64,000 nucleotides of DNA from Candidatus Nomurabacteria bacterium GW2011_GWE1_32_28 (GTDB lineage Bacteria > Patescibacteriota > Minisyncoccia > Phycocordibacterales > UBA9973): the NCBI GenBank assembly GCA_000989515.1, contig LBOM01000002.1:5453-69452 (forward strand), read 5' to 3'. Positions 11,619-32,935 of this stretch are shown piece by piece. The translations under genes and the position numbers were made by a program. The stretch's first letter is position 1; each line of letters begins with the position of its first letter. The notes under the pieces are model-generated. The model was not told the origin of the DNA. It saw nothing but the letters and a program-made list of their open reading frames with translations, and made no database searches.

Positions 11619-11630
11619 TTAAAGATAAAT

Positions 11631-11846
11631 ATGGATGCACTTATAATATCACAAACAATATTTTATGCAGTATCATCAGTAGTCATAATTGTTATTGGTG
11701 TGCTACTTATGATAGTTGTATATTATATGATAGGTATTTTGAAAAATACTCGTAGTGTCTCTGATGATATTTTTCAGACCTATGCAAAGACAAAAATAAG
11801 TATTAAAAAAATTATTAATTCGTTTAATAAAAAAAACAAAAAATAA
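11631..11846 (+). CDS. DUF948-like small membrane protein
   Basis: Single N-terminal TM helix then a short polar tail. Immediately precedes a YtxH-like gene, a commonly observed pairing. Confidence 0.4.
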   Translation: MDALIISQTIFYAVSSVVIIVIGVLLMIVVYYMIGILKNTRSVSDDIFQTYAKTKISIKKIINSFNKKNKK

Positions 11847-11851
11847 AATTT

Positions 11852-12184
11852 ATGGCAACAAAAACAAAAAAAGAAGATAAAAGCAGTAAATTTTTAAGTG
11901 GTGCATTGATAGGAGCAGCACTTGGGGTAGCTGCAGGCATATTTGCAAATTCTAAAACTGGCAAAGAGATTAAAGAAGAAGTAAATAATAAAATGGTGGA
12001 ATTTTATAAAACTATTGCTCCAAAGTTAAAAAATGCAAAAGAAATGGGAGAAAAAGAATATAAAGAATTTATAAATAAAGCTATCGTAGATTATAATAAA
12101 AAAGGTAAATTTGATAAAGAAGATTTAAAAAAGTTAACCAAAGAAGCTCATAAATCTTGGAAACATCTCAAAAAGCATTTGTAA
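11852..12184 (+). CDS. YtxH domain protein
   Basis: KFLSGALIGAALGVAAGIFANSKTGKEIKEE N-terminal YtxH signature. Confidence 0.6.
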   Translation: MATKTKKEDKSSKFLSGALIGAALGVAAGIFANSKTGKEIKEEVNNKMVEFYKTIAPKLKNAKEMGEKEYKEFINKAIVDYNKKGKFDKEDLKKLTKEAHKSWKHLKKHL

Positions 12185-12190
12185 AAAAAT

Positions 12191-12235
12191 ACACAAAAAA
12201 ACGGAAATAATACTTCCGTTTTTTTGTGTATTTAG
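12191..12235. terminator. Bidirectional intrinsic terminator
   Basis: Perfect 16 bp stem acacaaaaaaacggaa/ttccgtttttttgtgt with 7 nt loop. Lies between the YtxH gene (+) and tRNA-Gly (-). Confidence 0.8.
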
Positions 12236-12261
12236 ATTGAATTTATTCTTTTATATAAATG

Positions 12262-12332
12262 TGCGGGATGGGGTAATCGAAACCCCGTCTAATCCTTGGG
12301 AAGGACTCATTCTACCACTAAACTAATCCCGC
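12262..12332 (-). tRNA. tRNA-Gly (anticodon CCC)
   Basis: Cloverleaf folded by hand: acceptor gcgggat/atcccgc, T arm ggggt-ttcgatt-acccc, anticodon loop ttCCCaa. Confidence 0.8.
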
Positions 12333-12509
12333 ATATATAAAATATATCTTTATTTTATCTTTGGAGCAAGTATGTTATGGTGGAGGAATTGAATATAATG
12401 ACAGTTTTGTTTGGAATATTGAGTAATTTATAATATGCTATAATATTGATATTAAAAGTAATCCCTGTTTAATGGGGACCCTGATTGTATTTTCGGGATC
12501 AAAAAATAT

Positions 12510-12746
12510 ATGAAAAATGTAGTTATTTATTCAACACCGTCTTGTCATTTTTGTAATTTAGCAAAAGATTTTTTTACTGCAAATAATATTGTTTATACAG
12601 AATATGATGTTGCTACTGATGTCGAAAAAAGAAAAGAAATGATAGAAAAAAGTGGACAAATGGGTGTACCGGTTATAATCATAGAAAATGAGATTACTGT
12701 TGGCTTTGATAAGCCAAAATTGGCAAAAATGTTAGGATTTATTTAG
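12510..12746 (+). CDS. Glutaredoxin-like protein (NrdH/YruB type)
   Basis: 78 aa, CHFC redox motif (STPSCHFCNLAK), thioredoxin-fold small protein. Confidence 0.75.
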   Translation: MKNVVIYSTPSCHFCNLAKDFFTANNIVYTEYDVATDVEKRKEMIEKSGQMGVPVIIIENEITVGFDKPKLAKMLGFI

Positions 12747-12758
12747 TTTTTCATTTTA

Positions 12759-13700
12759 ATGAAAAAAATATTTAAAATAATTTTTTCTTTAGCTGTGGTA
12801 TGTATTATATTTTTTTTCTTTCATTCTCAAATTGAACAAGTTTTTTTTAGTTTAGAAAACAAATATCTACCATGTAGTAGACCCATTACCTATTCAATAG
12901 GTTCTTTTGATGATAGATTCGGTATATCAAAAGATGAATTTATAAAGGTTGTAAATACTGGAGAAATGGTGTGGGAAAAAGCTATTAATAAGGATCTTTT
13001 TATTTACAAGTCTGATGGTAGTGGTGTTTTAAAAATAAATTTAATTTATGATATTCGTCAAGAAGCTACTGAAAAATTAAAAGAAATAGGTATTACAGTC
13101 AATGATACTAAGGCGTCTTATGATGAATTAAAATTAAAATATAATATAATGCAGACTGATTATTTTAATAGTAAAAAAAGTTTTGAATTACAAATTAATT
13201 TATTACAAAATCGTCAAAACGCTTATGAAAAAGAAGTTAGTTACTTGAATGAAAATGGTGGTGCATCGAAAAAAGAATTTGATCGTTTGAATACAGAAAA
13301 GAGGGCTCTCGAAGTAGAATTTATAGAAATAAATAAATTACAGACTCAACTTAATTTTGATGTAGATAATATTAATTCACTTGCTATTGTTTTAAATCGT
13401 CTTATTTTATCTCTAAATATAGAAGTAAATAAATTTAATACAATTGGAGATCAGCTTGGAGGAGAGTTTGAAGAGGGTACTTATAAAGAAGATGCTATTA
13501 GTAGGGAAATAGATATTTATCAATTTGATAATATTGGTAAATTAGCAAGAGTTTTAACCCATGAATTTGGGCACGCATTAGGGCTTGGTCATTTAGAAAG
13601 TCCAGAATCTGTAATGTATCGTCTTAATAATGGTGTTAATGAAAAGTTAACGATAGAAGATATTTTAGCTCTAAAAAAGCGTTGTGAATTGGCTTTATAA
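12759..13700 (+). CDS. Membrane-anchored or secreted zinc metalloprotease (metzincin/matrixin-like) with coiled-coil region
   Basis: N-terminal hydrophobic signal anchor, long coiled-coil middle, C-terminal HEFGHALGLGH zinc-binding motif followed by Met-turn SVMY. Confidence 0.7.
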   Translation: MKKIFKIIFSLAVVCIIFFFFHSQIEQVFFSLENKYLPCSRPITYSIGSFDDRFGISKDEFIKVVNTGEMVWEKAINKDLFIYKSDGSGVLKINLIYDIRQEATEKLKEIGITVNDTKASYDELKLKYNIMQTDYFNSKKSFELQINLLQNRQNAYEKEVSYLNENGGASKKEFDRLNTEKRALEVEFIEINKLQTQLNFDVDNINSLAIVLNRLILSLNIEVNKFNTIGDQLGGEFEEGTYKEDAISREIDIYQFDNIGKLARVLTHEFGHALGLGHLESPESVMYRLNNGVNEKLTIEDILALKKRCELAL

Positions 13701-13794
13701 TTTTAACAAAAAAAGAGTAAATATCAAAAATTTTCTGGCGTATAACATAGCCAAGATGTTCGCAGGCCAAAACTTTTATATCTACTCTTTTTTG

Positions 13795-13866
13795 TGCCCT
13801 CACTCCGAATCGAACGGGGATCTATTCCTTAGGACGGAACTGTTCTATCCATTGAACTATGAGGGC
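13795..13866 (-). tRNA. tRNA-Arg (anticodon CCT)
   Basis: Acceptor gccctca/tgagggc, D arm gttc-aatggata-gaac, anticodon loop gtCCTaa. T stem has one C-A mismatch. Confidence 0.7.
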
Positions 13867-13955
13867 ATTTAAAGATTTGAAACTCTTTTAATTTAACACA
13901 AAAAATCAAAATTTGGAAATTGGCTTTTTAAAATAGTTATGATAAAATACGACTT

Positions 13956-14240
13956 ATGGATCCTGAATCTAAACAATTACTTAAAAATACATTAGAGCTT
14001 GCTGAAGAAAATAATAAATTACTTCATAAGATTAGAGGTGTACAAAACAGAGAATTTGTTTGGAAAATATTAAAAATGGTTCTAATCGTAGGTATTACCC
14101 TTGGTTCATTTTATTTTTTAGAGCCATATTTAAACAAGATGATGGATTTATATAGTTCAGTTTCTGGCATACAACAAAATATAAAAGATGTTTCAGACAC
14201 CAATTCATCTTCTTTAAAAGATTTATTAAAAAAGTTTTAA
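13956..14240 (+). CDS. Hypothetical small membrane protein
   Basis: ORF with one central TM helix. No recognisable motif. Confidence 0.35.
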   Translation: MDPESKQLLKNTLELAEENNKLLHKIRGVQNREFVWKILKMVLIVGITLGSFYFLEPYLNKMMDLYSSVSGIQQNIKDVSDTNSSSLKDLLKKF

Positions 14241-14245
14241 AGTAT

Positions 14246-14318
14246 GCCGAGGTAGCTCAGTTGGTAGAGCGCTCCCCTGAAGAGGGAGATGTCACCAGTT
14301 CAACTCTGGTCCTCGGCA
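14246..14318 (+). tRNA. tRNA-Phe (anticodon GAA)
   Basis: gccgaggtagctcagttggtagagc...ctGAAga...ggttcaactc; canonical cloverleaf. Confidence 0.9.
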
Positions 14319-14332
14319 CAATAAAATTAAAA

Positions 14333-14362
14333 AACCTACAAAATTTTGTAGGTTTTTTAATT
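14333..14362. terminator. Bidirectional intrinsic terminator
   Basis: aacctacaaaattttgtaggtt hairpin flanked by A/T runs, between tRNA-Phe (+) and hsp20 (-). Confidence 0.75.
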
Positions 14363-14366
14363 TTAT

Positions 14367-14828
14367 TTAGATTGATTTAACTTTTATGCTATTTCTTTTT
14401 TCCTTATCTACTTTTTGTATTTTTATAGTCAATAATCCATGTTTTTCTGTGGCCTCTACTTCTTCTGGTTCTACTTCTTGAGGTAATAGTATTGTTCGAG
14501 AGAATTTTCCCCAATAAAGTTCTTTTATGAAGTAGTTTTCTTCATCTATATTTTCATTTTCTTCTCTCTTACCTTTTATTGTAATAGTATCTCTAGCAAT
14601 AGTTAGTTCTAGATCTTCAGGTTTAACACCAGCTACCATTGTTTTAACTAAAATATCTGTAGGTGTTTGATATACATCTACAGTCAGTTCCATTTCTTCA
14701 TTTTCTTCTTCTATCCAACCATTACTTTTTTTGTCTTCGTTGGTTATTATTTTTTTTTCTTCAAATTCTTCTGTAGAATTTGTACCACCTGTTAATCTAT
14801 CAAAAAAACTTCTTTTTTTATTTTCCAT
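14367..14828 (-). CDS. Small heat shock protein (Hsp20/alpha-crystallin family)
   Basis: Alpha-crystallin domain: VDVYQTPTDILVKTMVAGVKPEDLELTIARDTITIKGKRE ... GKFSRTILLPQEV ... HGLLTIKI. Confidence 0.85.
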   Translation of the reverse strand: MENKKRSFFDRLTGGTNSTEEFEEKKIITNEDKKSNGWIEEENEEMELTVDVYQTPTDILVKTMVAGVKPEDLELTIARDTITIKGKREENENIDEENYFIKELYWGKFSRTILLPQEVEPEEVEATEKHGLLTIKIQKVDKEKRNSIKVKSI

Positions 14829-14856
14829 ATATTTTTTATTTAATAAGTGTTGTTAA

Positions 14857-15543
14857 TTATTCACTCATTCTTCTTAATTTTTCAAAAAGTAACATAATAA
14901 TAATTGTAACGACCCAAAGAAAACCTAAAATCTTAAAAGAATTATTTCCATTACTATCTATTATAAAAAAATTAAAAGAACTATGCAAGGTTATAGCAAA
15001 AATTAAACCCCAAAAAAGATATACTTTTTTTATAAATTTGACTTTTGAAAATGAAAGTCCAAGCGATATACCAATAATTCCAGAAGATACAGCATGGAGT
15101 AGTGTAGAACCTAAAAATCTAAGTTGTCCCGTAAGTAATCCGACAGTAGCATCATTTAGGGAGATTGGTTTAATTAAAAACATTGTATTTTCTAAAGCCG
15201 CAAATCCTAATGCAACAGTAATTAAAAAAATTGGCCAATCTATTGGTTCGTCTATACGATTTGTTTTATAAAGTATAATTACAACAGATAAATATTTAAT
15301 TAATTCTTCTGCACTTGCCCAACTGATAATTTGCCATTGATAAGAATCTATACTAGATTGAAGGAATTTTTGTACTGGTATTATAAAGAGAACAGAGATC
15401 ATACCTATAAAAAACAAAGATGCAATAAGACCTTTTGGTTCAGGTTTTTGATTGTCTTCTTTGAGCCAGAACCATAACCAGAATAGAGCAGGAATAATAC
15501 CCCCTAAAAGTGCTAGACCTAAAATTTTTGGATCAGTTATCAT
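14857..15543 (-). CDS. PrsW-family intramembrane protease-like membrane protein
   Basis: Multi-TM protein with EE..K (SAEELIKY), FxxxE (FAALENTMF) and H-containing (LLHAVSSG) motifs arranged as in PrsW/YhfC proteases. Confidence 0.5.
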   Translation of the reverse strand: MITDPKILGLALLGGIIPALFWLWFWLKEDNQKPEPKGLIASLFFIGMISVLFIIPVQKFLQSSIDSYQWQIISWASAEELIKYLSVVIILYKTNRIDEPIDWPIFLITVALGFAALENTMFLIKPISLNDATVGLLTGQLRFLGSTLLHAVSSGIIGISLGLSFSKVKFIKKVYLFWGLIFAITLHSSFNFFIIDSNGNNSFKILGFLWVVTIIIMLLFEKLRRMSE

Positions 15544-24183: not shown

Positions 24184-24408
24184 ATGCCTAATTTAGATGG
24201 TAGAGGACCAATGGGTCAAGGACCAAGAACTGGTCGAGGTATGGGGTGGGGTTGTTGTGGCGGATGTAGATGTGGTAGAGGTTTTGGATTTCGAAGATTT
24301 TTTTCTTCTAAAAATGATTTAGATACCTTAGAAGAACAAGAAAAAATGCTTGAGCAAGAATTAGAAGCAGTGCGTAAAGAAAAATCTGCTTTAGTAAATT
24401 TAAAGTAA
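24184..24408 (+). CDS. DUF5320-family small Gly/Cys-rich protein
   Basis: MPNLDGRGPMGQGPRTGRGMGWGCCGGCRCGRG N-terminus matches the MPxxDGTGPxGxGPxTGRGxG signature of DUF5320. C-terminal coiled coil. Confidence 0.6.
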   Translation: MPNLDGRGPMGQGPRTGRGMGWGCCGGCRCGRGFGFRRFFSSKNDLDTLEEQEKMLEQELEAVRKEKSALVNLK

Positions 24409-25033: not shown

Positions 25034-25321
25034 ATGCCAAGAACACAAAACTGTTTATGTAAGAATATAAAGTTTGAGCCAAATATAGTTTATTTTAAAC
25101 CACAGGGTGTTTCTATGAGAGATCTAGAGATAGTAGAAGTTTCTATGGAAGAAGTTGAAGCTTATAGGTTGCGACATGTTGAAAAATTAGAACAAACACA
25201 AGCAGGAGAAAAAATGAATACTTCTACGAGTACTTATCAAAGAATTCTTTACTCTGTTTATGAAAAATTAGGAGACGCTTTAATAAATGGTAAGGCTATT
25301 AAAATTATTAAACATAAATAA
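25034..25321 (+). CDS. DUF134 (UPF0251) predicted DNA-binding protein
   Basis: MPRTQNCLCKNIKFEPNIVYFKPQG ... GKAIKI matches the DUF134 pattern MPRPxKCRxV..P....FKP ... NGKAI. Confidence 0.65.
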   Translation: MPRTQNCLCKNIKFEPNIVYFKPQGVSMRDLEIVEVSMEEVEAYRLRHVEKLEQTQAGEKMNTSTSTYQRILYSVYEKLGDALINGKAIKIIKHK

Positions 25322-25324
25322 TAC

Positions 25325-26500
25325 ATGAGTAAAAAATTAACCATAGTTTCAAAATTGTTTGTTTTGTTTGGAGTGTTAGCTTTAGTCACATCTGTAATAT
25401 CTGTTTTTAATCCAAAAGTATCATATGCAGACGAGAAAGTAAAAGTAGATTTCTTTTATGGTGACGGTTGTCCTCATTGCGCAAGAGTTGAACCAATAAT
25501 TGATCTTCTTAAAAATAAGTTTCCAGAAGTTTTATTTAATGGTTATGAAATATATCATAATCAGGATAACGCCTTGTTGCTTTATTCATTGTATGATGAA
25601 TATAAAGTTATAGAAGAAAATCGTGGGGGAGTACCTATTGTTTTTATAGGTGACGAATATTTGATTGGAGATCAACCAATAATAAATAATTTAGAAAATA
25701 AAATTGTTACAAATTTGTCACTTTTATCAAGTAAAATTAAAACAGAAGTATCTATAATTTCACCTGTTTTACCACTAAACATAGAAGTAGATAGTACTGA
25801 TGAATTAAATATACCTACAAAGAAGTCATATTCGATTTGGGCTATCATAGGAGCTGCATTTGTTGATTCAATAAACCCTTGTGCTATTGCTGTCCTTTTA
25901 ATACTCTTGACGGCCTTAATGGTTGCCTCAGGTAATAAAAAGAGAGCTTTATATGGTGGATTAGCTTTTACTCTTTCTATTTATATTACATATTTTCTTT
26001 TTGGATTAGGATTGTTACAACTAATAGCAGTTACAAATATTGCTGGTATTATATCTAAAATTGTTGGAATAATAGCTTTAATTATTGGGTTAGCTAATAT
26101 TAAAGATTTTTTCTTTTATGGAGGAGGAGGTTTTGTAATGGAAATACCACGAAACTGGAGACCAATATTAAAAAAGATTTTAAATAGCGTTACTTCTCCT
26201 TTTGGTGCATTTCTTTCTGGATTCGTAGTTACTTTATTTGAGTTACCTTGTACTGGTGGACCATATTTCTTTGTAATAGGCTTATTGTCACAAGCAGAAA
26301 GTATTGTAAGTATTATTCCGATACTTTTATTTTACAATATAGTATTTATTCTCCCTTTATTGTTTATTGTATTCGCTGTTTATTTTGGAGTTTCATCAAT
26401 AGAAAAAGCTGAAGCATGGAAAGAAAAAAACTTAAGGAAACTTCATCTAGTAGCAGGTATAATAATGATTGCTTTAGGATCTTGGATATTTTTAATTTAA
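25325..26500 (+). CDS. Thioredoxin-like domain fused to CcdA/DsbD-type thiol-disulfide transporter membrane domain
   Basis: N-terminal CPHC thioredoxin motif (GDGCPHCARVEP) then multi-TM domain with conserved Cys pair (NPCAIAVLL ... LPCTGGPYFF). Confidence 0.7.
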   Translation: MSKKLTIVSKLFVLFGVLALVTSVISVFNPKVSYADEKVKVDFFYGDGCPHCARVEPIIDLLKNKFPEVLFNGYEIYHNQDNALLLYSLYDEYKVIEENRGGVPIVFIGDEYLIGDQPIINNLENKIVTNLSLLSSKIKTEVSIISPVLPLNIEVDSTDELNIPTKKSYSIWAIIGAAFVDSINPCAIAVLLILLTALMVASGNKKRALYGGLAFTLSIYITYFLFGLGLLQLIAVTNIAGIISKIVGIIALIIGLANIKDFFFYGGGGFVMEIPRNWRPILKKILNSVTSPFGAFLSGFVVTLFELPCTGGPYFFVIGLLSQAESIVSIIPILLFYNIVFILPLLFIVFAVYFGVSSIEKAEAWKEKNLRKLHLVAGIIMIALGSWIFLI

Positions 26501-26511
26501 GAATATTAATA

Positions 26512-27792
26512 TTATATCCAGTTTTTATTTATTATTTTTTCTACTAGAACCCTTGGAGACCCATAATATAATTTATTAAATGTTTCTATTGCTTCTTTTG
26601 TGGCAATGGGGAATTTTGATGTTTCTGGTAAGATACCAATACCAGAAAATGCGTTACTTGTTTTGCCATCTATCATCAACTTTATATAAAAACTAAATTT
26701 GGGTAAATTAATGAAATCTTCAATTGCTATTGGCATAAATTCCTTAGATAATATTTCAGCATCTTCTGTTCCAATCTCAAAGGAAAGAATTGTACCAACA
26801 TTTCCTAAAACTGAATCTTTTATATTCTTTGGCAATTGAGCTAAGTATTGGTTGGTTATATGCACACCTAATCCATATTTTCGTGATTCACTTAACATGC
26901 TAATGAATGTGTCTGTTGTAAAATTTTGAAACTCATCTACATATAGATAAAATGGCTTGCGATCGCTTGATTCTTTGTTGGCTCTTTTTAATATTCCAGC
27001 TTGAAGCTTTGATAGTATTATTAACCCAAGCATATGAGCGTTTATGTCACCAATTTTACCTTTTGAAAGGTTAACTAGTAATATTTTCTTATTGTCCATT
27101 AAATTTTCAAAGTCAAAACTACTTCTATGTTGTCCTATTATATTACGCATTAAAGTATTATTCATAAATTGTCCAAATTTTGACATAAAATAGTTGAGCA
27201 TTTCGCTTTTATGAAAATCTGATGTTTTAGACATTTGTTTTGTCCAGAATTCTATTACGAGGGGGTCTGTAAGATATTTTCTCTTCTCCATTTCAAATTT
27301 GTGATCAATAAAAAGTTTTGGAATTTCTATAAGACTTCCACCATCTGGTCCTGCCATGATAGTGAGTGCAGCATTTCTAAGCCAATGTTCAAATTGGGGA
27401 CCAATAATACCTGTTTTTTGTGGATCAAACAGTTTATAAAATATTTGTATACATTCATTAACTAGAAAATCTTTTTCTATTTCGGAATGTGCTTCGAGTA
27501 TATTGAGTCCAAAAGGAAAATCAATATCACTTGGATCAAACAAGACGACATCTTTTAGTCTATCTTTTGGAATATTTTTAAGTAACCAATCTATAGATTC
27601 TCCATGTGGATCAATAAAACAAACTCCTTCTTGATTTTCAATGTCTTGTAAACACATATTCTGATATATGGTTGATTTACCTACTCCTGTTTTACCGACC
27701 ATATACATATGACGCAACCTATCTTTCTCAGCATATTTGATAATAGTTGTCTTTCCGTGATATTTGTTTATTCCGATAATTATATTATTCAT
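26512..27792 (-). CDS. P-loop ATPase of the VirD4/TraD/TrwB type IV coupling-protein-like family
   Basis: Walker A MVGKTGVGKST, Walker B FYLYVDEFQNF, C-terminal TraD/TraG-like region. No TM segment at the N-terminus. Confidence 0.55.
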   Translation of the reverse strand: MNNIIIGINKYHGKTTIIKYAEKDRLRHMYMVGKTGVGKSTIYQNMCLQDIENQEGVCFIDPHGESIDWLLKNIPKDRLKDVVLFDPSDIDFPFGLNILEAHSEIEKDFLVNECIQIFYKLFDPQKTGIIGPQFEHWLRNAALTIMAGPDGGSLIEIPKLFIDHKFEMEKRKYLTDPLVIEFWTKQMSKTSDFHKSEMLNYFMSKFGQFMNNTLMRNIIGQHRSSFDFENLMDNKKILLVNLSKGKIGDINAHMLGLIILSKLQAGILKRANKESSDRKPFYLYVDEFQNFTTDTFISMLSESRKYGLGVHITNQYLAQLPKNIKDSVLGNVGTILSFEIGTEDAEILSKEFMPIAIEDFINLPKFSFYIKLMIDGKTSNAFSGIGILPETSKFPIATKEAIETFNKLYYGSPRVLVEKIINKNWI

Positions 27793-27796
27793 GAAT

Positions 27797-28117
27797 TTAT
27801 ATGTTATTGATACTTAAAGGCTTTTTGTTAAAGTAATTAATGTCTATTACGTTTTTAGTTTCATTTTCAATTCTTTTTTTATTACATATTTCTTTGTTTG
27901 TGATTTCAAGAAGAATTTTATTTTCTTTACTTATTTTATAAATAATAATATTTTTTGTTTCTTTATCTAGATAACTATCTATAGATAGAAGCATCTCATT
28001 TTCTAGTAAAAATATATTATTTACATATTCAAATGAAAGAAAATTATCCATATTGCTTTGTTCTTCTTCATTTCTAAAAGAAGTTTCTATATTTTTTAAT
28101 TTTTCGTCATTGTACAT
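27797..28117 (-). CDS. Hypothetical small acidic protein
   Basis: 106 aa ORF between two ATPase genes, same strand, short gaps. Confidence 0.4.
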   Translation of the reverse strand: MYNDEKLKNIETSFRNEEEQSNMDNFLSFEYVNNIFLLENEMLLSIDSYLDKETKNIIIYKISKENKILLEITNKEICNKKRIENETKNVIDINYFNKKPLSINNI

Positions 28118-28127
28118 AAGATTTTTA

Positions 28128-29789
28128 TTATTTATTTAATAATGTATTTACTAATAAAGATTCGCATGTTTCTTCAATGAATCTTTTTACAGGACGTGCT
28201 CCAAATCTTTCATCAAGTAATGGTTTTATGTTTTCTTCAAGCTCTTTTATATTTATATCAAAATAAACATTGTGTTTAGTTAGTCTTTTTTCTACTTTCT
28301 TTATTTCAAGTTTTGCTATATCTATAAGATTTGGTAAGGTGAGTGGATTAAAAACTAAGATGCTATCAAAACGATTAATAAATTCTAATCTGAATATTTT
28401 TGCTAATTCTGGGATAATTTTTTCTTGTATAAACTTTATGTCCATAATATCTTTTCCTTTATTAAATGCTTCTAAGATTACATTCACTCCTATATTAGAA
28501 GTTGCCATTATTATAGAATTACAAGCATCTACTGTTTCGTTTTGTCCTGATGTTAACCTTCCGTCGTCTAGTACTTGTAAAAATATATCAAAAATCTTTG
28601 GATGAGCTTTCTCTATTTCATCTAATAATATTAAACAGTGAGGTTCCTTTTGTAGAGCATTTGTGAGAGCTCCACCAGCCTCATAACCACTATATCCTGC
28701 TGGTGCTCCTATTAATCTCTGTACTGTATGATCTTGACTAAATTCTGACATATCAAATCTGATAAAGCTTTCTTGTCTACCAAACATAATTTCAGATATT
28801 AGCTTAGCTGTTTCAGTTTTTCCAACACCAGATGGTCCTAATATTAGAAATGATCCTAGCGGTTTGTTTGGATTCCTTACTCCTAATTTTGCTCTTTGTA
28901 ATGTTTGAATTATTTTATTAACTGGTTTAGTCTGGTTAATAATTTTAGAATTTAGTGTTTGATTGAGATTTTTTAATATCTCTATTTCATTTCCACTTAA
29001 TTGCATTTTAGGTATACCTATCTTGCTTGAAATAATATCGGAAATCATTTCATCTGTTAAATTCTTTTTATTTATTGATTTAGCAAGTACAATTCCTTCA
29101 TCCATTATACTTATAGCTGCTTGAGGCAGTTGTCCTAAACTGGGGAATTTTTCTACATATGTGATAATATCTTGCATTACTATTGAAGAAACAATAATTT
29201 TATGATCTTTATTAAGTTGTGCTAATTTACTTTCTAATATTTGAATTTGTTCAAGATTACTTTGCTTTTTAAATCTGACTGTTTCAAATACTTTTATGAA
29301 TGATGGGTATTCACGTTCTATAAAGTTGTATTCTTTTGGTTCCATCGTAAGAATAACTTTAACTTCAGGATTTTTAAGAACATCAGAATATAATCTAGCT
29401 ATGTTGTGTAACAGACTTGGATTTCCATATATGCTTCTACCAAAATTATCAATAAACAAAACACAGGAAGGTAATTCGTTCATTACGTTTTTAAAATAAA
29501 TTCCTTCTTCGCTACCACTATCAAATCTAAATAAATGCTCATTATCTAATTGAACAAAACTCAAGTGTTTGTATATATCTTGCTTAATCATTTTTTCAAT
29601 CCACCCATAAACTAGACTTGTTTTACCTGTACCACTTAAGCCAACTAAAATAACATTGTTATTGATACTTCGATTCGCAATTCTAGTTAATCGATTGATC
29701 TCATCGGTCCTTCCTATAAATTTTGGTAATTTACCTAAAGCAATTTCTTCTCTTAAGTCGTTATATTCTGTTTTTTTAAAAGTCTTCAT
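28128..29789 (-). CDS. Clp/Hsp100-type AAA+ ATPase lacking N-domain; D1 module degenerate, D2 module intact
   Basis: D1-like: VILVGLSGTGKTSLV Walker A, but Walker B reads VLFIDNFGR (DN not DE). D2: ILGPSGVGKTETAK, LILLDEIEKAHPKIFDIFLQVLDDGRLT, sensor region ATSNIG. Confidence 0.65.
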   Translation of the reverse strand: MKTFKKTEYNDLREEIALGKLPKFIGRTDEINRLTRIANRSINNNVILVGLSGTGKTSLVYGWIEKMIKQDIYKHLSFVQLDNEHLFRFDSGSEEGIYFKNVMNELPSCVLFIDNFGRSIYGNPSLLHNIARLYSDVLKNPEVKVILTMEPKEYNFIEREYPSFIKVFETVRFKKQSNLEQIQILESKLAQLNKDHKIIVSSIVMQDIITYVEKFPSLGQLPQAAISIMDEGIVLAKSINKKNLTDEMISDIISSKIGIPKMQLSGNEIEILKNLNQTLNSKIINQTKPVNKIIQTLQRAKLGVRNPNKPLGSFLILGPSGVGKTETAKLISEIMFGRQESFIRFDMSEFSQDHTVQRLIGAPAGYSGYEAGGALTNALQKEPHCLILLDEIEKAHPKIFDIFLQVLDDGRLTSGQNETVDACNSIIMATSNIGVNVILEAFNKGKDIMDIKFIQEKIIPELAKIFRLEFINRFDSILVFNPLTLPNLIDIAKLEIKKVEKRLTKHNVYFDINIKELEENIKPLLDERFGARPVKRFIEETCESLLVNTLLNK

Positions 29790-29794
29790 TTATT

Positions 29795-31855
29795 TTAGGC
29801 TATTATTTTTAGTGTTATCCCGTTTAAATTTCTTTGTTGATATATACTTGGAATCGATTTTACTGATTTAGTTTCTTGTTCTTCTTGATTTACACTTGGA
29901 ACCGATCTGGAATTTGTTGATTCAGTATTTTTTGATTCAGTTATATTTTGAGATATTCCGAGAATCTGTAACAAAATCTCATGACCACTGAGTGGTTTTG
30001 CTTTTAAACCTTCTTCTCTGGTTAGATTTTTTTCTTTTAGTTTTTCTAAAGATTTTGGAGCTTCATTTCTTGTAGTGTTATAAGCTATATTGCTATTAAA
30101 TTTCAATATAATAGCCTCTTTTTTGGTTTTTTCTTTTTTGAGATTTATTTCTCTTTCTCTTGTTTTTGTTTTGATTTTTTCTTCATCTTTAATTACAAAA
30201 AAGTTTTCTCTATTTTGATTAGTTTTTTTATTTTTATTATTTTCTATGTTTATATTTAAAATATTTTGAGTTTCAATTTTTATACTATCAGTTTTATAAG
30301 GAACAGTTTCTATCTTTTTTATTTCTTGTGGCTTATTAACTATTTCTTCTAGAATATTAAAACTTTGTACTTTTTGAACTAGTTCTTTTTCTGCTTTTAT
30401 ATTATTAATATTTATTTCAGTATTATTAAATGCGGTTGTATCAACATTTTCTAATAGTTCTTCTGATTTGATTATAAGATTTTCCTTTTTTTCAGTATTT
30501 AAAATCTGTTCCACTGATTCTGTATTTCGTTCTTGAATATTTTTTGTGTTAGATATTTCTATTATTTCATTTGTTTCTGTCTTGTTTTCTATCTCTGTTT
30601 TGTTAAATACAACTTCTATTGTTTCTTCTTTTAAAAATGCTGATTTTTCTGCTGTGGTTGTAGTGTAAGTAAATGGTAAATTCTCCTCTATCTCTGTAAT
30701 AGTTTCAGTTGGTGTGTTTATTTCTATTATTTTATTATTATGAATAAAAATTTGTTCTTTTTGAGTATTTTCAATATCAGGTGTTTGTACTTGCTCAAAG
30801 GATATTTCTGTTTGCTCATTTTTTTCTCTAAATAATTCTATAATCCTACTTTCAAGTGTTTTCACTTTTTCTTCTTTGTCTTCAACTGTTACAGTTAAAG
30901 GTTCGGTGTATTCTTGAATGTCTTTAAAAGTTTGTTTAGTTTCAGTTTCATCAATAATAATGTTCATTTCTTCGATAGAATCTGGTTGTGTTTCTTCTTT
31001 AAATAAGTCAATGATTTTTTCAGTTATAACTTTTTCTACATCTATTTTTGTATCTATTGTTAATTGTTCTATATGGTGAGTATTATCTATGCTGACATTT
31101 TCTTTAGAAGAAATAAGCTCTGATTGAATATTTTCCACCAACATTACTTGTTCAACATTGGCATAATGGACTTCAAAAGTACTAAAATTCTGTTCTTCAA
31201 CTTGAATAATTTCTTCAACTTGTTCAACCTCTATTTCATTAACTGTTTCATTTTCTGTTAGCAAAGATTGCTCTAGGGATGTTTCTCTTTTTGCTTCTTC
31301 TTGTTTGTTTACATCTATATTAAGTTTAAGATTTAAAGTTACTTCTTTCGCTATTGGTTCATTTGTTTTCTCTTCTTGTTTTTCTTTTATTTCTTCGACA
31401 AATACAATCAGACTTCTAATATTGCCTTCTCTGTCTGCTGTCATTGCTGCAATTGAAGTTATTTTTATTTCTTCAGTTTCTTTTATTATATAATCTGGAA
31501 ACATGTAAACTTCTTCTGGATTGGCAATAATATTATCAAGTCTATATAATTCTTCTTTTTGTTGCTCTAAGTTCATATTAGAATTTAGAATATTTTCCCT
31601 CATTTGGCCTGCGTCAAGAGTCTTGTCAATTTCAACTTTTGAATTTTCAGCAGTAGCTCCACGCTTATCCGTTATGGATTGAATTAAAGGGTCAATTTTT
31701 TCTTCATTTTCTACACATATCACAGCTTCCTCTTCTTTATTATTTTCGTGTTCTTTGTCGTTGATATGATGTTCAAAATTCTCACCAAAATCTATTTCGG
31801 TGTCTTGAATATCTATTTCATCTATTATTTCTTCACTTGTATAAAATGTATCCAT
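29795..31855 (-). CDS. Large extremely acidic low-complexity protein (E/K/T/I/N-rich, about 690-704 aa)
   Basis: Long ORF with strongly biased composition and imperfect repeats. The ORF track extends it to a TTG at 31909, but ATG at 31855 downstream of a terminator hairpin is the more likely start. Confidence 0.5.
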   Translation of the reverse strand: MDTFYTSEEIIDEIDIQDTEIDFGENFEHHINDKEHENNKEEEAVICVENEEKIDPLIQSITDKRGATAENSKVEIDKTLDAGQMRENILNSNMNLEQQKEELYRLDNIIANPEEVYMFPDYIIKETEEIKITSIAAMTADREGNIRSLIVFVEEIKEKQEEKTNEPIAKEVTLNLKLNIDVNKQEEAKRETSLEQSLLTENETVNEIEVEQVEEIIQVEEQNFSTFEVHYANVEQVMLVENIQSELISSKENVSIDNTHHIEQLTIDTKIDVEKVITEKIIDLFKEETQPDSIEEMNIIIDETETKQTFKDIQEYTEPLTVTVEDKEEKVKTLESRIIELFREKNEQTEISFEQVQTPDIENTQKEQIFIHNNKIIEINTPTETITEIEENLPFTYTTTTAEKSAFLKEETIEVVFNKTEIENKTETNEIIEISNTKNIQERNTESVEQILNTEKKENLIIKSEELLENVDTTAFNNTEININNIKAEKELVQKVQSFNILEEIVNKPQEIKKIETVPYKTDSIKIETQNILNINIENNKNKKTNQNRENFFVIKDEEKIKTKTREREINLKKEKTKKEAIILKFNSNIAYNTTRNEAPKSLEKLKEKNLTREEGLKAKPLSGHEILLQILGISQNITESKNTESTNSRSVPSVNQEEQETKSVKSIPSIYQQRNLNGITLKIIA

Positions 31856-31875
31856 AAAAACAATTAAAAACAAAA

Positions 31876-31897
31876 AAATTCTGCTTGGGCAGAATTT
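31876..31897 (-). terminator. Intrinsic terminator/attenuator hairpin between structured RNA element and acidic-protein ATG
   Basis: aaattctgc ttgg gcagaattt perfect 9 bp stem; on the minus strand it is followed by a U-run (ttttttgttttt). Confidence 0.6.
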
Positions 31898-31917
31898 GTG
31901 GTCCTTCAAAATAAATT

Positions 31918-32044
31918 AAGAAGTAATTCCTGCTCGGGAAAACAAAAATGATTGGCAGTCGGACTTGTCCTAAGACTTTTAAAGTCATAGGCTTACCGTA
32001 GCGGCACTGTGCTGGAATCTAACCAGCTTCCCCAATCACTTCTT
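31918..32044 (-). ncRNA. Unclassified structured RNA element (candidate riboswitch or cis-regulatory leader, or small RNA)
   Basis: About 47% GC island in a 30% GC background. 11 bp closing helix (gaagugauu.../...aauuacuuc), perfect with one G-U only if transcribed from the minus strand. Internal hairpins gcugg-uuagauu-ccagc and ccuaugacu-uuaaa-agucuuagg. Confidence 0.45.
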
Positions 32045-32231
32045 TATAATTATTAAATGAACTTATTTATTTTATTCTTTTATCTAAGCCTGTCAATTTT
32101 AAGTGTGGATAAAGTTTCTTGCAGATTATTTATCTTTATTTTTTTGTTTAATTATTTAAAGAATTATTCTATAAATACCCAAGAGATTTCACTAATAGGG
32201 GATTAAAACTAGTTTTTCAATCAGATAGGTT

Positions 32232-32675
32232 TTATATTTTTGCATTTCTTTTAAATCCTAATAGTTCTAAATACAACAAAGTGAGGTCTGAGATGTAGGG
32301 TAATTTTTTTATATCCTCAATAGACATAAAGAGTTGTTGTTTGTGTTTTTGAGGTTCCATATTTTTCATTTCTCCTGAAAATTTTAAAATTTCGAATAAA
32401 TGACTTATGACTTTAACATTATTATTATTTCTTTCGTAATAATAATTTTTTACTATAAGTTCTTTATAATCTTCAATTTGTAAATTAGATTCTTCAAAAA
32501 CTTCTTCTTTTAAACCAACTATAATATCTTGTCCATTCTTTACTTTTCCAATTGGAATAGTCCAAAAACCATATTTAACATGTTCTTGGACTAAAATTTC
32601 AGATGCATTATTTTTAATAACGGCAGCGACTCCATGGTGGCTTACTGTATCTTCGCTGTTGTATTTTATATTCAT
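32232..32675 (-). CDS. NUDIX-hydrolase-like protein (degenerate Nudix box)
   Basis: GKVKNGQDIIVGLKEEVFEESNL approximates the Nudix box Gx5Ex7REUxEExGU. Confidence 0.45.
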   Translation of the reverse strand: MNIKYNSEDTVSHHGVAAVIKNNASEILVQEHVKYGFWTIPIGKVKNGQDIIVGLKEEVFEESNLQIEDYKELIVKNYYYERNNNNVKVISHLFEILKFSGEMKNMEPQKHKQQLFMSIEDIKKLPYISDLTLLYLELLGFKRNAKI

Positions 32676-32686
32676 ATTAAAGTTTG

Positions 32687-32758
32687 TGACCCTACAGGGA
32701 ATCGAACCCTGATTACCGGATTGAAAACCCGATGTCCTAACCGTTAGACGATAGGGCC
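32687..32758 (-). tRNA. tRNA-Glu (anticodon TTC)
   Basis: ggccctatcgtctaacggttaggac...ttTTCaa...gggttcgattccc. Confidence 0.8.
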
Positions 32759-32847: not shown

Positions 32848-32935
32848 GGAGACGTGGGTGAGTGGTTGAAACCACCGCTCTCGAAAAGCGGCATACTGCA
32901 AGGTATCGGAGGTTCAAATCCTCCCGTCTCCGCCA
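32848..32935 (+). tRNA. tRNA-Ser (anticodon CGA), CCA encoded
   Basis: ggagacgtgggtgagtggttgaaaccac ... ctCGAaa ... long variable arm ... ggttcaaatcc ... cgtctcc g cca. Confidence 0.85.

Follow-up and report, generated by a model that had tools for sequence, protein, structure and literature searches.

What could a Clp-type AAA+ protein and a coupling-protein-like ATPase be doing in one transcription unit with two acidic proteins, one small and one large? The question is raised by four genes in a 64,000-nt stretch of DNA from Candidatus Nomurabacteria bacterium GW2011_GWE1_32_28 (the window). An earlier note had described them as an arrangement not found in textbooks, with a structured RNA leader, a small 106-aa acidic protein and a large, probably disordered acidic one, and this description held in each respect.

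Operon layout and genomic context

The four co-directional minus-strand ORFs of the earlier note were all present, at 29795..31909, 28128..29789, 27797..28117 and 26512..27792. The tight spacing was confirmed, with intergenic gaps of 5, 10 and 4 nt where 2-10 nt had been claimed. An operon of close-packed translation units with a structured RNA at its head is supported. Its genes and their recognisable parts are:

29795..31855, minus strand: gene 1, 686-aa acidic, mostly disordered protein, putative client; start ATG at 31855
31361..31699, minus strand: gene 1, conserved alpha+beta domain near the N-terminus, residues approx. 53-165 (iterated HMM)
29798..29998, minus strand: gene 1, C-terminal module, conserved and net-basic, with EILLQILGI and the tail ...NLNGITLKIIA-COOH
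28128..29789, minus strand: gene 2, 553-aa two-ring Clp/Hsp100 AAA+ protein (Pfam, NCBIfam and PDB matches)
27797..28117, minus strand: gene 3, 106-aa small acidic protein (alignment of 20 lineages)
26512..27792, minus strand: gene 4, 426-aa soluble type-IV-coupling-protein-like P-loop ATPase (Pfam, AF2, Foldseek)

Among 80 fetched loci the Clp-like gene lay directly upstream of the ATPase gene in 44, with the small ORF in a gap of 250-400 nt between them. These 44 are all the loci with an ATPase identity of at least 57%, and they belong to Paceibacteria-, Kaiserbacteria-, Doudnabacteria- and Magasanikbacteria-type genomes. An acidic ORF of 237-910 aa directly preceded the Clp-like gene in the 44 loci, so that the window's four-gene order, from acidic protein to ATPase, was conserved. 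The co-occurrence in related genomes that the earlier note wanted checked was thereby found. Its presence in 44 independent genomes whose flanking genes differ puts the arrangement far beyond chance. A few gene 1 orthologues are barely acidic or apparently disrupted: one (L037) has a net charge of -5, and in L042 the gene 1 ORF has a pI of 9.1 and the Clp gene is split.

The surroundings are those of a housekeeping chromosome (FtsZ, FtsA, IleRS, TsaD, Def) with uniform GC content. No relaxase, integrase or T4SS was detected in the operon context. Across the operon, the 64-kb window and the 8-kb flanks there was neither a membrane component nor a T4SS channel gene or relaxase, and IMG/VR viral contigs gave no match. 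This bears on the idea that the operon is an anti-phage defence system, or what is left of a conjugative or mobile element, and lies near a riboswitch by chance. Annotation pipelines indeed label the gene 4 ATPase VirD4/TraG/TraD, relatives of it occur on plasmids, and PADLOC reported weak similarity to mad8/HerA and DolB/PDC-M37B. The PADLOC matches are, however, generic ATPase-domain matches without partner genes, and the ATPase is 57-93% identical over the 44 loci, a vertical-looking conservation over phylum-level diversity. Together with the chromosomal context and the riboswitch described below, found in 37/37 loci, this effectively refutes a remnant or defence origin, to which we attach a very low probability.

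A cobalamin riboswitch ahead of the operon

No feature of the operon says more about its function than the RNA leader, which the earlier note had not recognised as a cobalamin riboswitch. The leader comprises:

32069..32096, minus strand: putative sigma-70-like promoter, TTGACA-16 nt-TAAAAT, directly upstream of the aptamer
31924..32065, minus strand: cobalamin (B12) riboswitch aptamer (Rfam, own CM and covariation)
31928..31939, minus strand: near-invariant TCCCGAGCAGGA hairpin (the CCCGAGCAGGA hairpin), P13/L13-like (alignment of 29 leaders)
31866..31897, minus strand: intrinsic terminator with 9-bp stem AAATTCTGC/GCAGAATTT and T-run, the expression platform

The aptamer in the window matched Rfam Cobalamin RF00174 marginally, with 31.8 bits (GA 31.5), and AdoCbl RF01482 over the full-length model with 47.5 bits (threshold 50, E 1e-7); our own CM, R1, scored it at 115.5 bits. 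Several orthologous leaders exceeded the Rfam gathering score (L011 66.7 bits, L033 48.9, L034 42, L025 41.2, L024 36.6). Across the alignment pairing was 96.3%, 11/13 pairs were compensatory, and the covariation score was 0.588 vs 0.148 in shuffles, with 0/500 shuffles as high. A CM search of 1.19 Mb gave 31 strong matches, each immediately 5' of the acidic gene and none elsewhere. With its covariation and terminator, the leader is identified as a cobalamin riboswitch. The operon is conserved across many ultra-small Patescibacteria with a cobalamin-clan leader ahead of it in every one of the 37 loci with upstream sequence, and two aptamer subclasses precede the same operon in different lineages.

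Judged by its position, the TTGACA-16 nt-TAAAAT site probably acts as the promoter; with 11/12 consensus matches it was the best promoter-like site within 26300-32300. The TCCCGAGCAGGA hairpin has six invariant positions (C, CGAG, A) across 29 leaders, its stem covaries (UA<->CG and CG<->UA), and its GAGCAGGA is complementary to the terminator 5' arm. The antiterminator pairing was seen when the L017 platform was folded (MFE); the platform of the window gave the hairpin and the terminator, with no obvious strong antiterminator. An equivalent hairpin and T-run precede the start codon in 27/35 orthologous leaders under strict criteria. By eye, a hairpin with T4-5 was present in most of the remaining ones, being not evident for L026 and doubtful for L024.

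In order, the transcription unit has the putative promoter, the riboswitch with its intrinsic terminator and the four close-packed genes. With plentiful B12 (a cobamide), the aptamer would capture the CCCGAGCAGGA hairpin, the terminator would form and the operon would be switched off. When B12 is scarce, the hairpin segment would instead pair with the terminator 5' arm and the operon would be transcribed.

Cobalamin riboswitches usually follow such an OFF logic, and in other bacteria they control metE or nrdAB/nrdDG, as in Rodionov-type regulon reconstructions. A deoxynucleotide bypass would match it as well: many Patescibacteria are thought to depend on a B12-dependent class II ribonucleotide reductase, and without B12 a module with a DNA-translocating ATPase of the FtsK/VirD4 type might import or process foreign DNA as a source of dNMP. 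The gene 4 ATPase belongs to the DNA-translocase-related FtsK/HerA/VirD4 group and weakly matches CedD, an archaeal DNA-import ATPase, and in Patescibacteria genes for taking up DNA feature prominently (PMC10936435). We nevertheless regard the bypass as distinctly improbable, as genes for a nuclease, a ComEC-like channel or a DNA-binding protein are absent from the operon, neither the unfoldase nor the acidic client-like protein with its tail is explained, and no support was found in the literature.

The four proteins

For gene 1 the earlier note had given 700 aa; the listed ORF, 29795..31909, has 704 aa from TTG. This start was rejected because the TTG lies inside the riboswitch terminator, and the hydrophobic 'FLFLIVF' N-terminus is an artefact of the translated terminator and T-run (31897-31866). 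Public gene callers likewise begin at ATG 31855, which gives 686 aa. The product contains 21.6% D+E and has a pI of 4.6 and a net charge of -64; the positional orthologue was acidic in 39/39 sequences (median net charge -64). Low complexity was confirmed, but the repeats claimed earlier are weak: because only micro-repeats of 2-4 copies (TRF scores 31-60) are present, the protein is low-complexity rather than built of repeat arrays. We found no match in Pfam, NCBIfam or PADLOC, and neither a TM segment nor a signal peptide.

The N-proximal domain was recovered by iterated HMM in 25/39 orthologues. Close relatives share it almost unchanged, whereas the middle of the protein is hypervariable. 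In the AF2 model its core reached a pLDDT of 70-86 with disordered flanks, and no relative appeared in Pfam, PDB sequences or Foldseek. At the other end, EILLQILGI sits 61 residues from the C-terminus in the window's protein, and the motif was found 57-67 residues from the C-terminus (one outlier, 84) in 16/39 orthologues. The family tail consensus is ...NGITLK.AA. C-termini end in AA in 25/38 and in A in 32/38 (background 4.5% and 10%), 29/39 carry a net positive charge over their last 20 residues, and all 27 matches of the tail regex among 5,466 ORFs are gene 1. The possibility, raised in the earlier note, of a fast-evolving filler is therefore not borne out: the N-domain of the protein is conserved, the acidic linker after it is hypervariable and the C-terminal module is basic, with purifying selection on both ends and not on the middle.

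Gene 2 was correctly read as a two-module Clp/Hsp100-like protein with a degenerate D1. Pfam gave AAA_2 (3e-53) and ClpB_D2-small with a weak D1 match; the ClpB, ClpA and TssH models matched at 1e-93 to 1e-109, with scores 3-4 times below every NCBIfam equivalog cut-off. Against the PDB it matched ClpB D2 (2e-90) and was colinear with ClpA 176-721, without N-domain, M-domain or the ClpP-binding IGF/IGL loop. In 42 orthologues the D1 Walker B Glu column held D or N in 37 and Glu was never one of the two commonest residues, whereas the D2 motifs were invariant. The D1 KYR pore loop is absent; D2 has a canonical pore loop, Arg finger and sensor 2. Judged by these motifs, D1 is catalytically degenerate and D2 canonical.

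Gene 3 had no Pfam or PDB profile match. Its alignment of 20 lineages (F96 invariant; Y95, K61, E65 and L91 at >=90%) places it in a new conserved, helical-looking family with a C-terminal L...YF.QK.L motif.

The VirD4/TraD-like character of gene 4 was substantiated by Pfam (TrwB_AAD_bind 25.8 bits, cut-off 20.5; TraG-D_C 23, cut-off 22; also DUF87) and by Walker A GKTGVGKST, Walker B YLYVDEF and a DPHGE motif. The AF2 model (pLDDT 75, pTM 0.78) has a nucleotide-binding domain and an all-alpha domain, and in Foldseek it matched Cag-beta (E 4.5e-7, TMq 0.59-0.62), TrwB, HerA and VirB4. The N-terminal TM anchor typical of T4CPs is missing, and the 64-kb window and flanks hold no T4SS neighbours. 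A Patescibacteria survey counted 5,713 T4CP homologues, only 148 of them near virB4, and left their function open (PMC12102498); in agreement with it, the window places the ATPase outside a canonical T4SS or conjugative context, a point that the earlier note had singled out. According to work cited in that survey, Saccharibacteria could lose a T4CP homologue and still grow as epibionts, while their T4SS genes were essential.

Possible function and comparison with known systems

Our preferred explanation, held tentatively and at somewhat less than even confidence, is an ATP-driven module that threads and delivers a client, the acidic protein, and is expressed during B12 starvation. The client would have a super-acidic N-terminus, a small folded N-domain and an acidic disordered linker of 100-700 residues, and may be recognised via its C-terminal module (E-I-L-L-x-x-L-G-I, approx. 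50 aa, N-G-I-T-L-K-x-A-A-COOH). ClpA and ClpX engage C-terminal ...LAA-COOH (ssrA) tails, and T4CPs bind C-terminal signals that are often positively charged. The C-terminal AA enrichment, tail specificity, fixed spacing of the two motifs, charge polarity and conserved ends argue for a client. The Clp-like hexamer would be a non-proteolytic threading motor without a ClpP-docking loop, its D1 binding ATP but hydrolysis-dead and its D2 fully active with a GY.G pore loop; the invariant D2, the lost D1 Walker B Glu, the missing IGF/IGL loop and the ClpA-colinear alignment are consistent with this. The TM-less coupling-protein-like hexamer, suggested by the Cag-beta/TrwB fold match and DPHGE motif, would receive or present the client, with the gene 3 protein as a possible adaptor. 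The recipient would probably be the monoderm-type T4SS that these genomes encode at another chromosomal site. The purpose is most likely tied to getting cobamide or managing without it, the organisms being assumed unable to make B12 and host-dwelling. Points against it are the lack of a TM anchor and of nearby channel genes, the dispensable T4CP homologue of Saccharibacteria, the marginal Rfam scores of the window's aptamer, the platform without an obvious strong antiterminator, and the few gene 1 orthologues that are barely acidic or look disrupted; nor did any of the four proteins resemble a corrinoid-binding domain in sequence and Foldseek searches. On balance we favour a client that is unfolded and delivered when B12 is limiting, with export a presumed step. 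Export, a DNA mimic and a DNA-uptake accessory, the roles put forward in the earlier note, stay conjectural.

The same parts might work wholly in the cytoplasm. During B12 limitation the acidic protein would then have a regulatory, storage or polyanionic-mimic role and might, for example, sequester cationic or nucleic-acid-binding proteins, while the Clp-like AAA+ and a T4CP-like ATPase exapted from secretion remodel, load or remove it. None of the four proteins has a TM segment, no channel genes lie nearby, and the ATPase conservation (approx. 70% identity across classes) fits housekeeping machines more than effector-delivery parts. Orphan T4CP-like genes outside T4SS contexts occur in other bacteria too, and exaptation of Patescibacteria T4CPs has been raised explicitly (PMC12102498). 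However, a hypervariable middle between conserved ends, combined with a free tail signal at the C-terminus and a T4CP fold, is what translocated substrates classically show, no DNA-binding or regulatory domain was detected, and the need for a coupling-protein-type hexamer beside an unfoldase is not explained. We consider such a cytoplasmic role rather unlikely.

Methanogens are corrinoid-rich, and B12 might report host contact or cytoplasm access instead of being a nutrient to acquire. The operon would then be a host-seeking or attack-mode module of pre-loaded effector and delivery ATPases, turned off once host-derived cobamide arrives. The structural evidence is the same as for client delivery under B12 starvation, Paceibacteria parasitise methanogens (PMC10936435), and a B12 switch over B12-unrelated genes has been reported for rpfB (preprint 10.1101/2024.07.19.603033). 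Yet this proposal is purely inferential, requires export, and cannot be separated from the preferred explanation by sequence data; we judge it unlikely.

No published description of a B12 riboswitch linked to a Clp–coupling-ATPase operon was found; the link ties an orphan ATPase family to B12 scarcity. The T4CP homologues of PMC12102498, VirD4-type and mostly far from virB4, probably belong to the same protein family as gene 4; as far as its text shows, no Clp-like partner, acidic protein, small protein or cobalamin riboswitch was described.

Compared with T4CP complexes with adaptors, namely Cag-beta/CagZ (H. pylori), TrwB (R388) and DotL-DotM-DotN-IcmS/IcmW (Legionella), gene 4 shares the nucleotide-binding domain with inserted all-alpha domain (best PDB matches 8dol and 1e9s) and a small partner protein encoded beside it, and the candidate client has a C-terminal net-positive signal like T4SS substrates. 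In contrast to T4CPs, gene 4 is approx. 12% identical to the solved structures without a sequence-profile match, lacks the N-terminal TM anchor, is unlinked to virB4, relaxase or any T4SS gene, is paired with a Clp-type unfoldase under riboswitch control, and evolves extremely slowly.

Gene 2 resembles the class I Clp/Hsp100 proteins (ClpA, ClpB, ClpC, ClpV/TssH) in its two AAA+ rings, a D2 similar to ClpB D2 at the 1e-90 level and colinearity with the ClpA core, and the ...AA-COOH tail of gene 1 recalls ssrA-tag recognition by ClpA and ClpX. It differs in lacking N-domain, M-domain and IGF/IGL loop, and in the loss of the D1 Walker B Glu and KYR loop.

With type VII secretion (EccA AAA+ chaperone, EccC/EssC FtsK-like ATPase, WXG100 substrates of approx. 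100 aa) there is an analogy only: an AAA+ protein, an FtsK/VirD4-superfamily ATPase, a helical protein of approx. 100 aa whose C-terminal part carries an aromatic motif, and large substrates of low complexity. The operon has no WXG motif and no EccB/D/E or EssA/B genes, EccA is CbxX-type and not Clp type, and EccC has three ATPase domains and TM helices; the operon is not homologous beyond superfamily level.

The leader shares with cobalamin riboswitches (CL00101: RF00174, RF01482 AdoCbl, RF01689 AdoCbl-II) the core sequence, covarying helices, P13-like hairpin and terminator-type expression platform, while the genes behind it are not for B12 transport, biosynthesis or B12-independent isozymes. 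A precedent is M. tuberculosis ppe2, a secretion-system substrate of uncertain function governed by a B12 riboswitch (PMC11260477). The proteins are unrelated, the secretion machinery is different, and ppe2 is followed by cobQ and cobU whereas the four-gene operon has no B12-metabolic gene. The likeness lies in a cobalamin OFF switch placed before a gene of an ESX/T7SS substrate family, in a bacterium that depends on external B12 (PMC11260477).

Operon structure and chromosomal setting

The four minus-strand open reading frames proposed in the earlier note were borne out (29795..31909, 28128..29789, 27797..28117 and 26512..27792); they are separated by 5, 10 and 4 nt. The TTG at 31909 as the start of gene 1, together with the hydrophobic, signal-peptide-like N-terminus FLFLIVF, was rejected, as this stretch is the translated riboswitch terminator and its T-run. 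Because the listed TTG falls inside the terminator, the ATG at 31855 was taken as the true start (686 aa), and gene callers likewise place it there.

Genes of the operon (window positions)
29795..31855, minus strand: gene 1, acidic protein, 686 aa from ATG 31855
28128..29789, minus strand: gene 2, Clp-like AAA+ protein, 553 aa
27797..28117, minus strand: gene 3, small protein, 106 aa
26512..27792, minus strand: gene 4, coupling-protein-like ATPase, 426 aa

The GC content was approx. 29% across the whole window. The neighbours of the operon are those of a housekeeping chromosome: FtsZ, FtsA, a TrxB-like protein, a PIF1-type helicase, a NUDIX protein, Def, ZnuABC, TsaD, IleRS, enolase, PPDK, an H+-PPase and the Mur/Mra cluster. 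Genes for tRNA-Glu(UUC) (32686-32758, minus strand) and tRNA-Ser(CGA) (32848-32935, plus strand) flank the NUDIX gene, which lies a short way upstream of the operon promoter, and no sign of an integration site was detected. Convergent with the operon and just downstream of it lie three plus-strand genes (24184-24408, 25034-25321 and 25325-26500), encoding a 74-aa Gly/Cys-rich DUF5320 protein, a DUF134 protein and a 391-aa membrane protein of thioredoxin-fold plus DsbD_2 type. Beside FUR and ZnuABC they look like a small redox or metal-related cluster.

A scan with one genome per species yielded 80 loci. In all 44 loci whose ATPase was at least 57% identical to that of the window, a Clp-like gene (33-93% identity) was found directly upstream of the ATPase gene. 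The 250-400 nt between the two contained an ORF of 64-141 aa, and an acidic ORF of 237-910 aa stood immediately before the Clp-like gene, while the flanks of the operon varied between lineages. Genes for VirB4, VirB6 or a relaxase were detected neither in the 64-kb window nor in the 8-kb flanks of the 44 loci. A mobile element or conjugation remnant is effectively excluded by the housekeeping context, the lack of relaxase and T4SS genes, the lack of viral contigs and the vertical conservation. A known defence system is effectively excluded as well: PADLOC reported generic ATPase-domain similarity only (mad8, 6.6e-14; DolB, 2e-30 via D2), the full set of Dodola (DolB), MADS (mad8) or HerA system proteins was not found, the small and acidic proteins had no PADLOC match, and partner genes were missing.

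Two copies of the operon were atypical. At L042:3280-7671 a basic ORF (pI 9.1) replaces the acidic gene and the Clp-like gene is split into two ORFs; this copy may be a pseudogene or result from misassembly. At L037:749-3409 the "acidic" protein is near neutral (net charge -5) and the leader carries an insertion of approx. 100 nt. In Kaiserbacteria-type loci (L015:5564-6256, also L016 and L032) an F420-0:gamma-glutamyl ligase-like gene (CofE/F420_ligase, 8.5e-43) was found just after the ATPase gene, convergent to it. This gene was unexpected, as Kaiserbacteria-type organisms are not known to use F420.

The cobalamin riboswitch leader

Upstream of gene 1 the window contains the following elements.

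Leader elements (window positions)
32096-32069, minus strand: sigma-70-like promoter TTGACA-16-TAAAAT, the best of the region, directly upstream of the aptamer
31933-32080, minus strand: match to Cobalamin RF00174, 31.8 bits against a gathering score of 31.5, marginal (Rfam)
31918-32058, minus strand: full-length match to AdoCbl RF01482, 47.5 bits, E 1e-7, below the threshold of 50 (Rfam)
31897-31866, minus strand: intrinsic terminator, 9-bp hairpin plus T-run, directly downstream of the aptamer

By the Rfam thresholds the window aptamer alone is marginal, and its probable identity as a cobalamin riboswitch comes largely from the orthologous leaders. The leader of the relative L011 matched AdoCbl with 66.7 bits (threshold 50), and AdoCbl-II (gathering score 36.5) was matched by the leaders of L033 (48.9 bits), L034 (42), L025 (41.2) and L024 (36.6), with matches below threshold for L029 and L015. 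Two aptamer subclasses thus head one operon, an AdoCbl-like one (RF01482/RF00174; window 31918-32058, L011:661-807) and AdoCbl-II.

AdoCbl-II RF01689 aptamers
L033:5245-5345
L034:1637-1736
L025:3318-3382
L024:1302-1371

The aptamer type is replaced between lineages while the regulation is kept, and the ligand preference (AdoCbl versus MeCbl/OHCbl) may differ between the subclasses.

The leaders were searched for by iterated nhmmer and then with a covariance model built from 29 of them. This model gave 31 strong matches (50-117 bits), each just 5' of an acidic gene, and no strong match elsewhere in 1.19 Mb. The seven operon loci without a strong match have a variant leader in the same place, assigned to AdoCbl-II by Rfam. 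From the 31 matches and the variant leaders of the remaining loci we concluded that a leader of the cobalamin clan is present at every one of the 37 loci for which upstream sequence was available. A second match to the riboswitch core, at position 13414 of L036, was taken as chance, since the region around it looks coding and no further part of the aptamer is present there. In an alignment of 39 sequences that was fitted to the model, 96.3% of the helix cells were paired and double changes occurred in 11 of 13 pairs. The covariation score was 0.588 versus 0.148 in shuffles (0/500), and the signal collapsed to at most 0.164 when the pairing partners were slid.

Located 3' of the aptamer is a near-invariant CCCGAGCAGGA hairpin, whose GAGCAGGA has its complement in the terminator's 5' arm (…TCTGCYC). 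For the L017 platform the minimum-energy fold is exactly this antiterminator pairing, which was not obvious in the minimum-energy fold of the window's own platform. A hairpin and T-run before the start codon was detected under strict criteria in 27 of 35 leaders; most of the GC-rich rest showed, by eye, a hairpin followed by 4-5 T. From this layout we infer a classical transcriptional switch with ligand-OFF logic.

In Doudnabacteria-type loci the gene directly 5' of the riboswitch, and on its strand, invariably encodes a protein of 159-175 aa with a PaaX central (Cas2-like) domain; three of these proteins were scanned and gave E-values of 1e-18 to 1e-20. It may be an additional regulator.

PaaX-domain proteins, all plus strand and 5' of the riboswitch
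L033:4713-5192
L034:1113-1592
L040:3004-3531
L041:3471-3971
L042:2734-3225
L044:2907-3425

The encoded proteins

Neither the acidic nor the 106-aa protein had a match in Pfam or NCBIfam; a deposited Candidatus Nomurabacteria genome includes an identical copy of the acidic protein, annotated as hypothetical. The acidic ORF was net negative in 39 of 39 sequences (median net charge -64), and its first approx. 50 residues are super-acidic (median -14). A conserved alpha+beta N-domain of approx. 100 aa was matched by an HMM in 25 of the 39. Its AF2 core reached a pLDDT of 70-86 and Foldseek returned no structural relative, both from an MSA of 5 sequences. A corrinoid-binding domain in this position was unsupported by Pfam, by PDB profile search and by AF2 with Foldseek (the same 5-sequence MSA). 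Searching 5.8 billion proteins with the N-domain profile, which is too short for this, gave a nearly empty result, and the full-length protein gave 5 matches, as low-complexity words saturate the index.

The acidic protein has a hypervariable middle, which is acidic and disordered, and a conserved, net-basic C-terminal module. In 16 lineages the motif E[IT][IL]L[RQ]ALGI lies 57-67 residues away from the C-terminus, with a single outlier at 84; the tail reads …NGIT[LM][KR].AA-COOH. The terminal AA was present in 25 of 38 orthologues versus a background of 4.5%; a regular expression for the tail matched 27 of 5,466 ORFs in 1.3 Mb, all of them the acidic gene.

The small protein is a real family, with F96 invariant, Y95, K61, E65 and L91 at least 90% conserved and a C-terminal motif L…YF.QK.L. 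It had no Pfam or PDB relative, and a known adaptor or WXG100 protein was rejected for this reason and for the lack of a WXG motif.

Gene 2 indeed encodes a two-module AAA+ protein of Clp/Hsp100 type, as had been claimed (AAA_2, 3e-53; ClpB_D2-small, 4e-8; AAA_lid_9; Pfam and NCBIfam). The ClpB, ClpA and TssH models of NCBIfam matched at 1e-93 to 1e-109, far under their equivalog cut-offs, and ClpB was matched in the PDB at 2e-90, for a ClpB-like D2. Residues 12-551 align to ClpA 176-721, colinear with the ClpA core, and the ClpB alignment is limited to D2 and a short piece of D1. Among 42 orthologues the Walker A, Walker B, GY.G pore loop, Arg finger and sensor 2 of D2 were invariant. The degeneracy of D1 was likewise verified: Walker A is kept, and the catalytic Glu of Walker B (hhhhD[D/N]) is replaced in 37 of the 42, by D in 20 and by N in 17, Glu never being among the two commonest residues. 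The KYR pore loop of D1 is absent and its region is not conserved in these orthologues. The D1 linker motif stands at the very N-terminus of the protein, with no Clp_N match (Pfam) and no M-domain. By inspection there is no ClpP-docking IGF/IGL loop, as no [IVL]G[FL] tripeptide is conserved and the region after the TSN motif is short and ClpB-like. These sequence features would describe a non-proteolytic threading motor driven by D2.

For gene 4 the predicted P-loop ATPase with signatures of a type IV coupling protein (T4CP) was recovered by TrwB_AAD_bind (25.8 bits, cut-off 20.5), TraG-D_C (23, cut-off 22) and DUF87 (Pfam, NCBIfam), the first two matching over short stretches only. It carries Walker A GKTGVGKST, Walker B YLYVDEF and a DPHGE motif. 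The protein stayed below the curated equivalog models TraD, CD1115 VirD4-like and CedD (best SXT_TraD, 51.7 bits, cut-off 366), and sequence profiles found no PDB relative. The AF2 model, of moderate quality (pLDDT 75, pTM 0.78), was closest in Foldseek to Cag-beta (E 4.5e-7, TMq 0.59-0.62) and TrwB (E 6e-6, TM approx. 0.5) at approx. 12% identity, followed by HerA and VirB4. The modelled fold appears TrwB-like, with a nucleotide-binding and an all-alpha domain. No TM-like segment was detected (maximum 19-residue Kyte-Doolittle mean 1.41).

More than 7,900 close homologues of the ATPase were found, and the protein is approx. 70% identical across Paceibacteria, Kaiserbacteria, Wolfebacteria and Colwellbacteria. 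An exhaustive search gave 4,811 clusters at 50% identity (E at most 1e-30). Most relatives are proteins of 800-2,000 aa, in which the domain either follows an extension of approx. 380 aa that contains one TM helix or forms the C-terminus; full-length representatives of similar size numbered two or three among the best 150. This is consistent with the stand-alone 426-aa orthologues having been absorbed into the query's own 50% cluster, and the operon form therefore seems to evolve unusually slowly. Berkelbacteria-type lineages, in which the ATPase is more distant (53-57% identity), have neither Clp gene nor riboswitch; instead they encode membrane-anchored long paralogues of approx. 850 and 1,040-1,150 aa (L062:6765-9323 and 11794-15237; L045:6777-9323 and 11108-14221). 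A single N-terminal TM helix was found in the three checked (both of L062 and the 848-aa one of L045), the approx. 850-aa forms bear the approx. 380-aa extension, and the L062 pair carries T4CP-type domains (Pfam). Between the two long paralogues of L062 lies a gene for a sigma-70 region-4 plus HARE-HTH protein.

Outside Patescibacteria the closest relatives of the ATPase (31-34% identity) come from orphan genes of "T4SS DNA-binding domain" type, which no T4SS accompanies. They were found on plasmids of Sulfitobacter (L085, NZ_CP081110) and Bradyrhizobium (L086, NZ_CP064708), where they adjoin transposases and recombinases or sit between CHAT-domain/TPR proteins. As they have no Clp or acidic partners, they are uninformative on function. 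Among 5,713 T4CP homologues reported in Patescibacteria only 148 lie near virB4, and exaptation was left open (PMC12102498).

A proposed mechanism and its relation to known systems

We regard it as firmly shown that the operon is conserved, is headed by a B12 riboswitch and encodes a modular acidic protein, an unfoldase of Clp type, a small partner protein and a soluble ATPase resembling coupling proteins. In the most economical mechanism the acidic protein would be a client recognised via its C-terminal module; ClpA and ClpX engage free …AA-COOH tails, and T4CPs recognise positively charged C-terminal signals. This client would be threaded by the AAA+ protein, driven by D2 and without degradation, and passed on by the coupling-type hexamer, plausibly to a T4SS encoded elsewhere. 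The T4SS known elsewhere in Patescibacteria genomes are chromosomal and of monoderm type (PMC12102498). Alternatively, the module could have a cytoplasmic, non-secretory role.

Expression under B12 scarcity only, as the switch would impose, suggests cobamide acquisition, survival without cobamide, or B12 as a signal of host access. The last corresponds to a host-sensing variant of the client-delivery model; another alternative is the scavenging of DNA or dNMP as a bypass for B12-dependent ribonucleotide reductase. B12 switches have precedents in M. tuberculosis, over ppe2 (PMC11260477) and, as reported, over rpfB (10.1101/2024.07.19.603033).

An extension of client delivery, which we consider rather unlikely, is a previously unrecognised "reel-and-line" machine induced by B12 starvation, either T4SS-independent or docked to a T4SS; put conservatively, it would be a new B12-governed protein-translocation pathway of Patescibacteria. 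The small N-domain of the acidic protein would be sent out as a hook to the host cell or the medium, the polyanionic linker of 100-700 residues would span the envelope or channel, and the basic C-terminal handle would be retained by the Clp-like motor together with the coupling-type ATPase. Both ATPases might then pay the protein out and reel it in again, bringing back cobamide or other cargo from the host.

A large part of bacterial diversity belongs to the Patescibacteria (CPR), and to our knowledge almost none of their host-interaction or regulatory circuits are experimentally understood. With this operon an orphan ATPase family, counted in thousands of genomes by a 2025 survey and left unexplained, gains partners, a probable client and a regulatory signal. 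It is rare for the genes under a cobalamin riboswitch to encode ATPases that handle proteins, and not B12 transport, synthesis or bypass enzymes. B12 availability is implied to be a master cue for how these minimal cells live, and the operon may show how ultra-small symbionts get cofactors from their hosts. If the client is exported, …GITL[KR].AA would be a C-terminal signal usable to find further substrates.

The searchable literature on cobalamin riboswitches, VirD4 and B12 with RNR in Patescibacteria/CPR yielded no paper that describes such an operon under B12 control. The parts of the operon are of known kinds. What appears unreported in that literature is how they are combined and placed under the control of B12, and there is a substantial chance that the operon is a new type of translocation system. 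T4CPs are linked to a T4SS (VirB4, VirB6) or a relaxase, whereas the 426-aa ATPase stands without such linkage in the window and in the 8-kb flanks of the 44 loci. It also lacks the N-terminal transmembrane anchor of T4CPs, which the longer paralogues in other lineages do have. The AAA+ protein differs from class I Clp/Hsp100 proteins in being without N-domain, the coiled-coil M-domain of ClpB/ClpC, a competent D1 and the ClpP loop of the ClpA/ClpC/ClpX type, but shares with them the two-module architecture and a ClpB-type D2.
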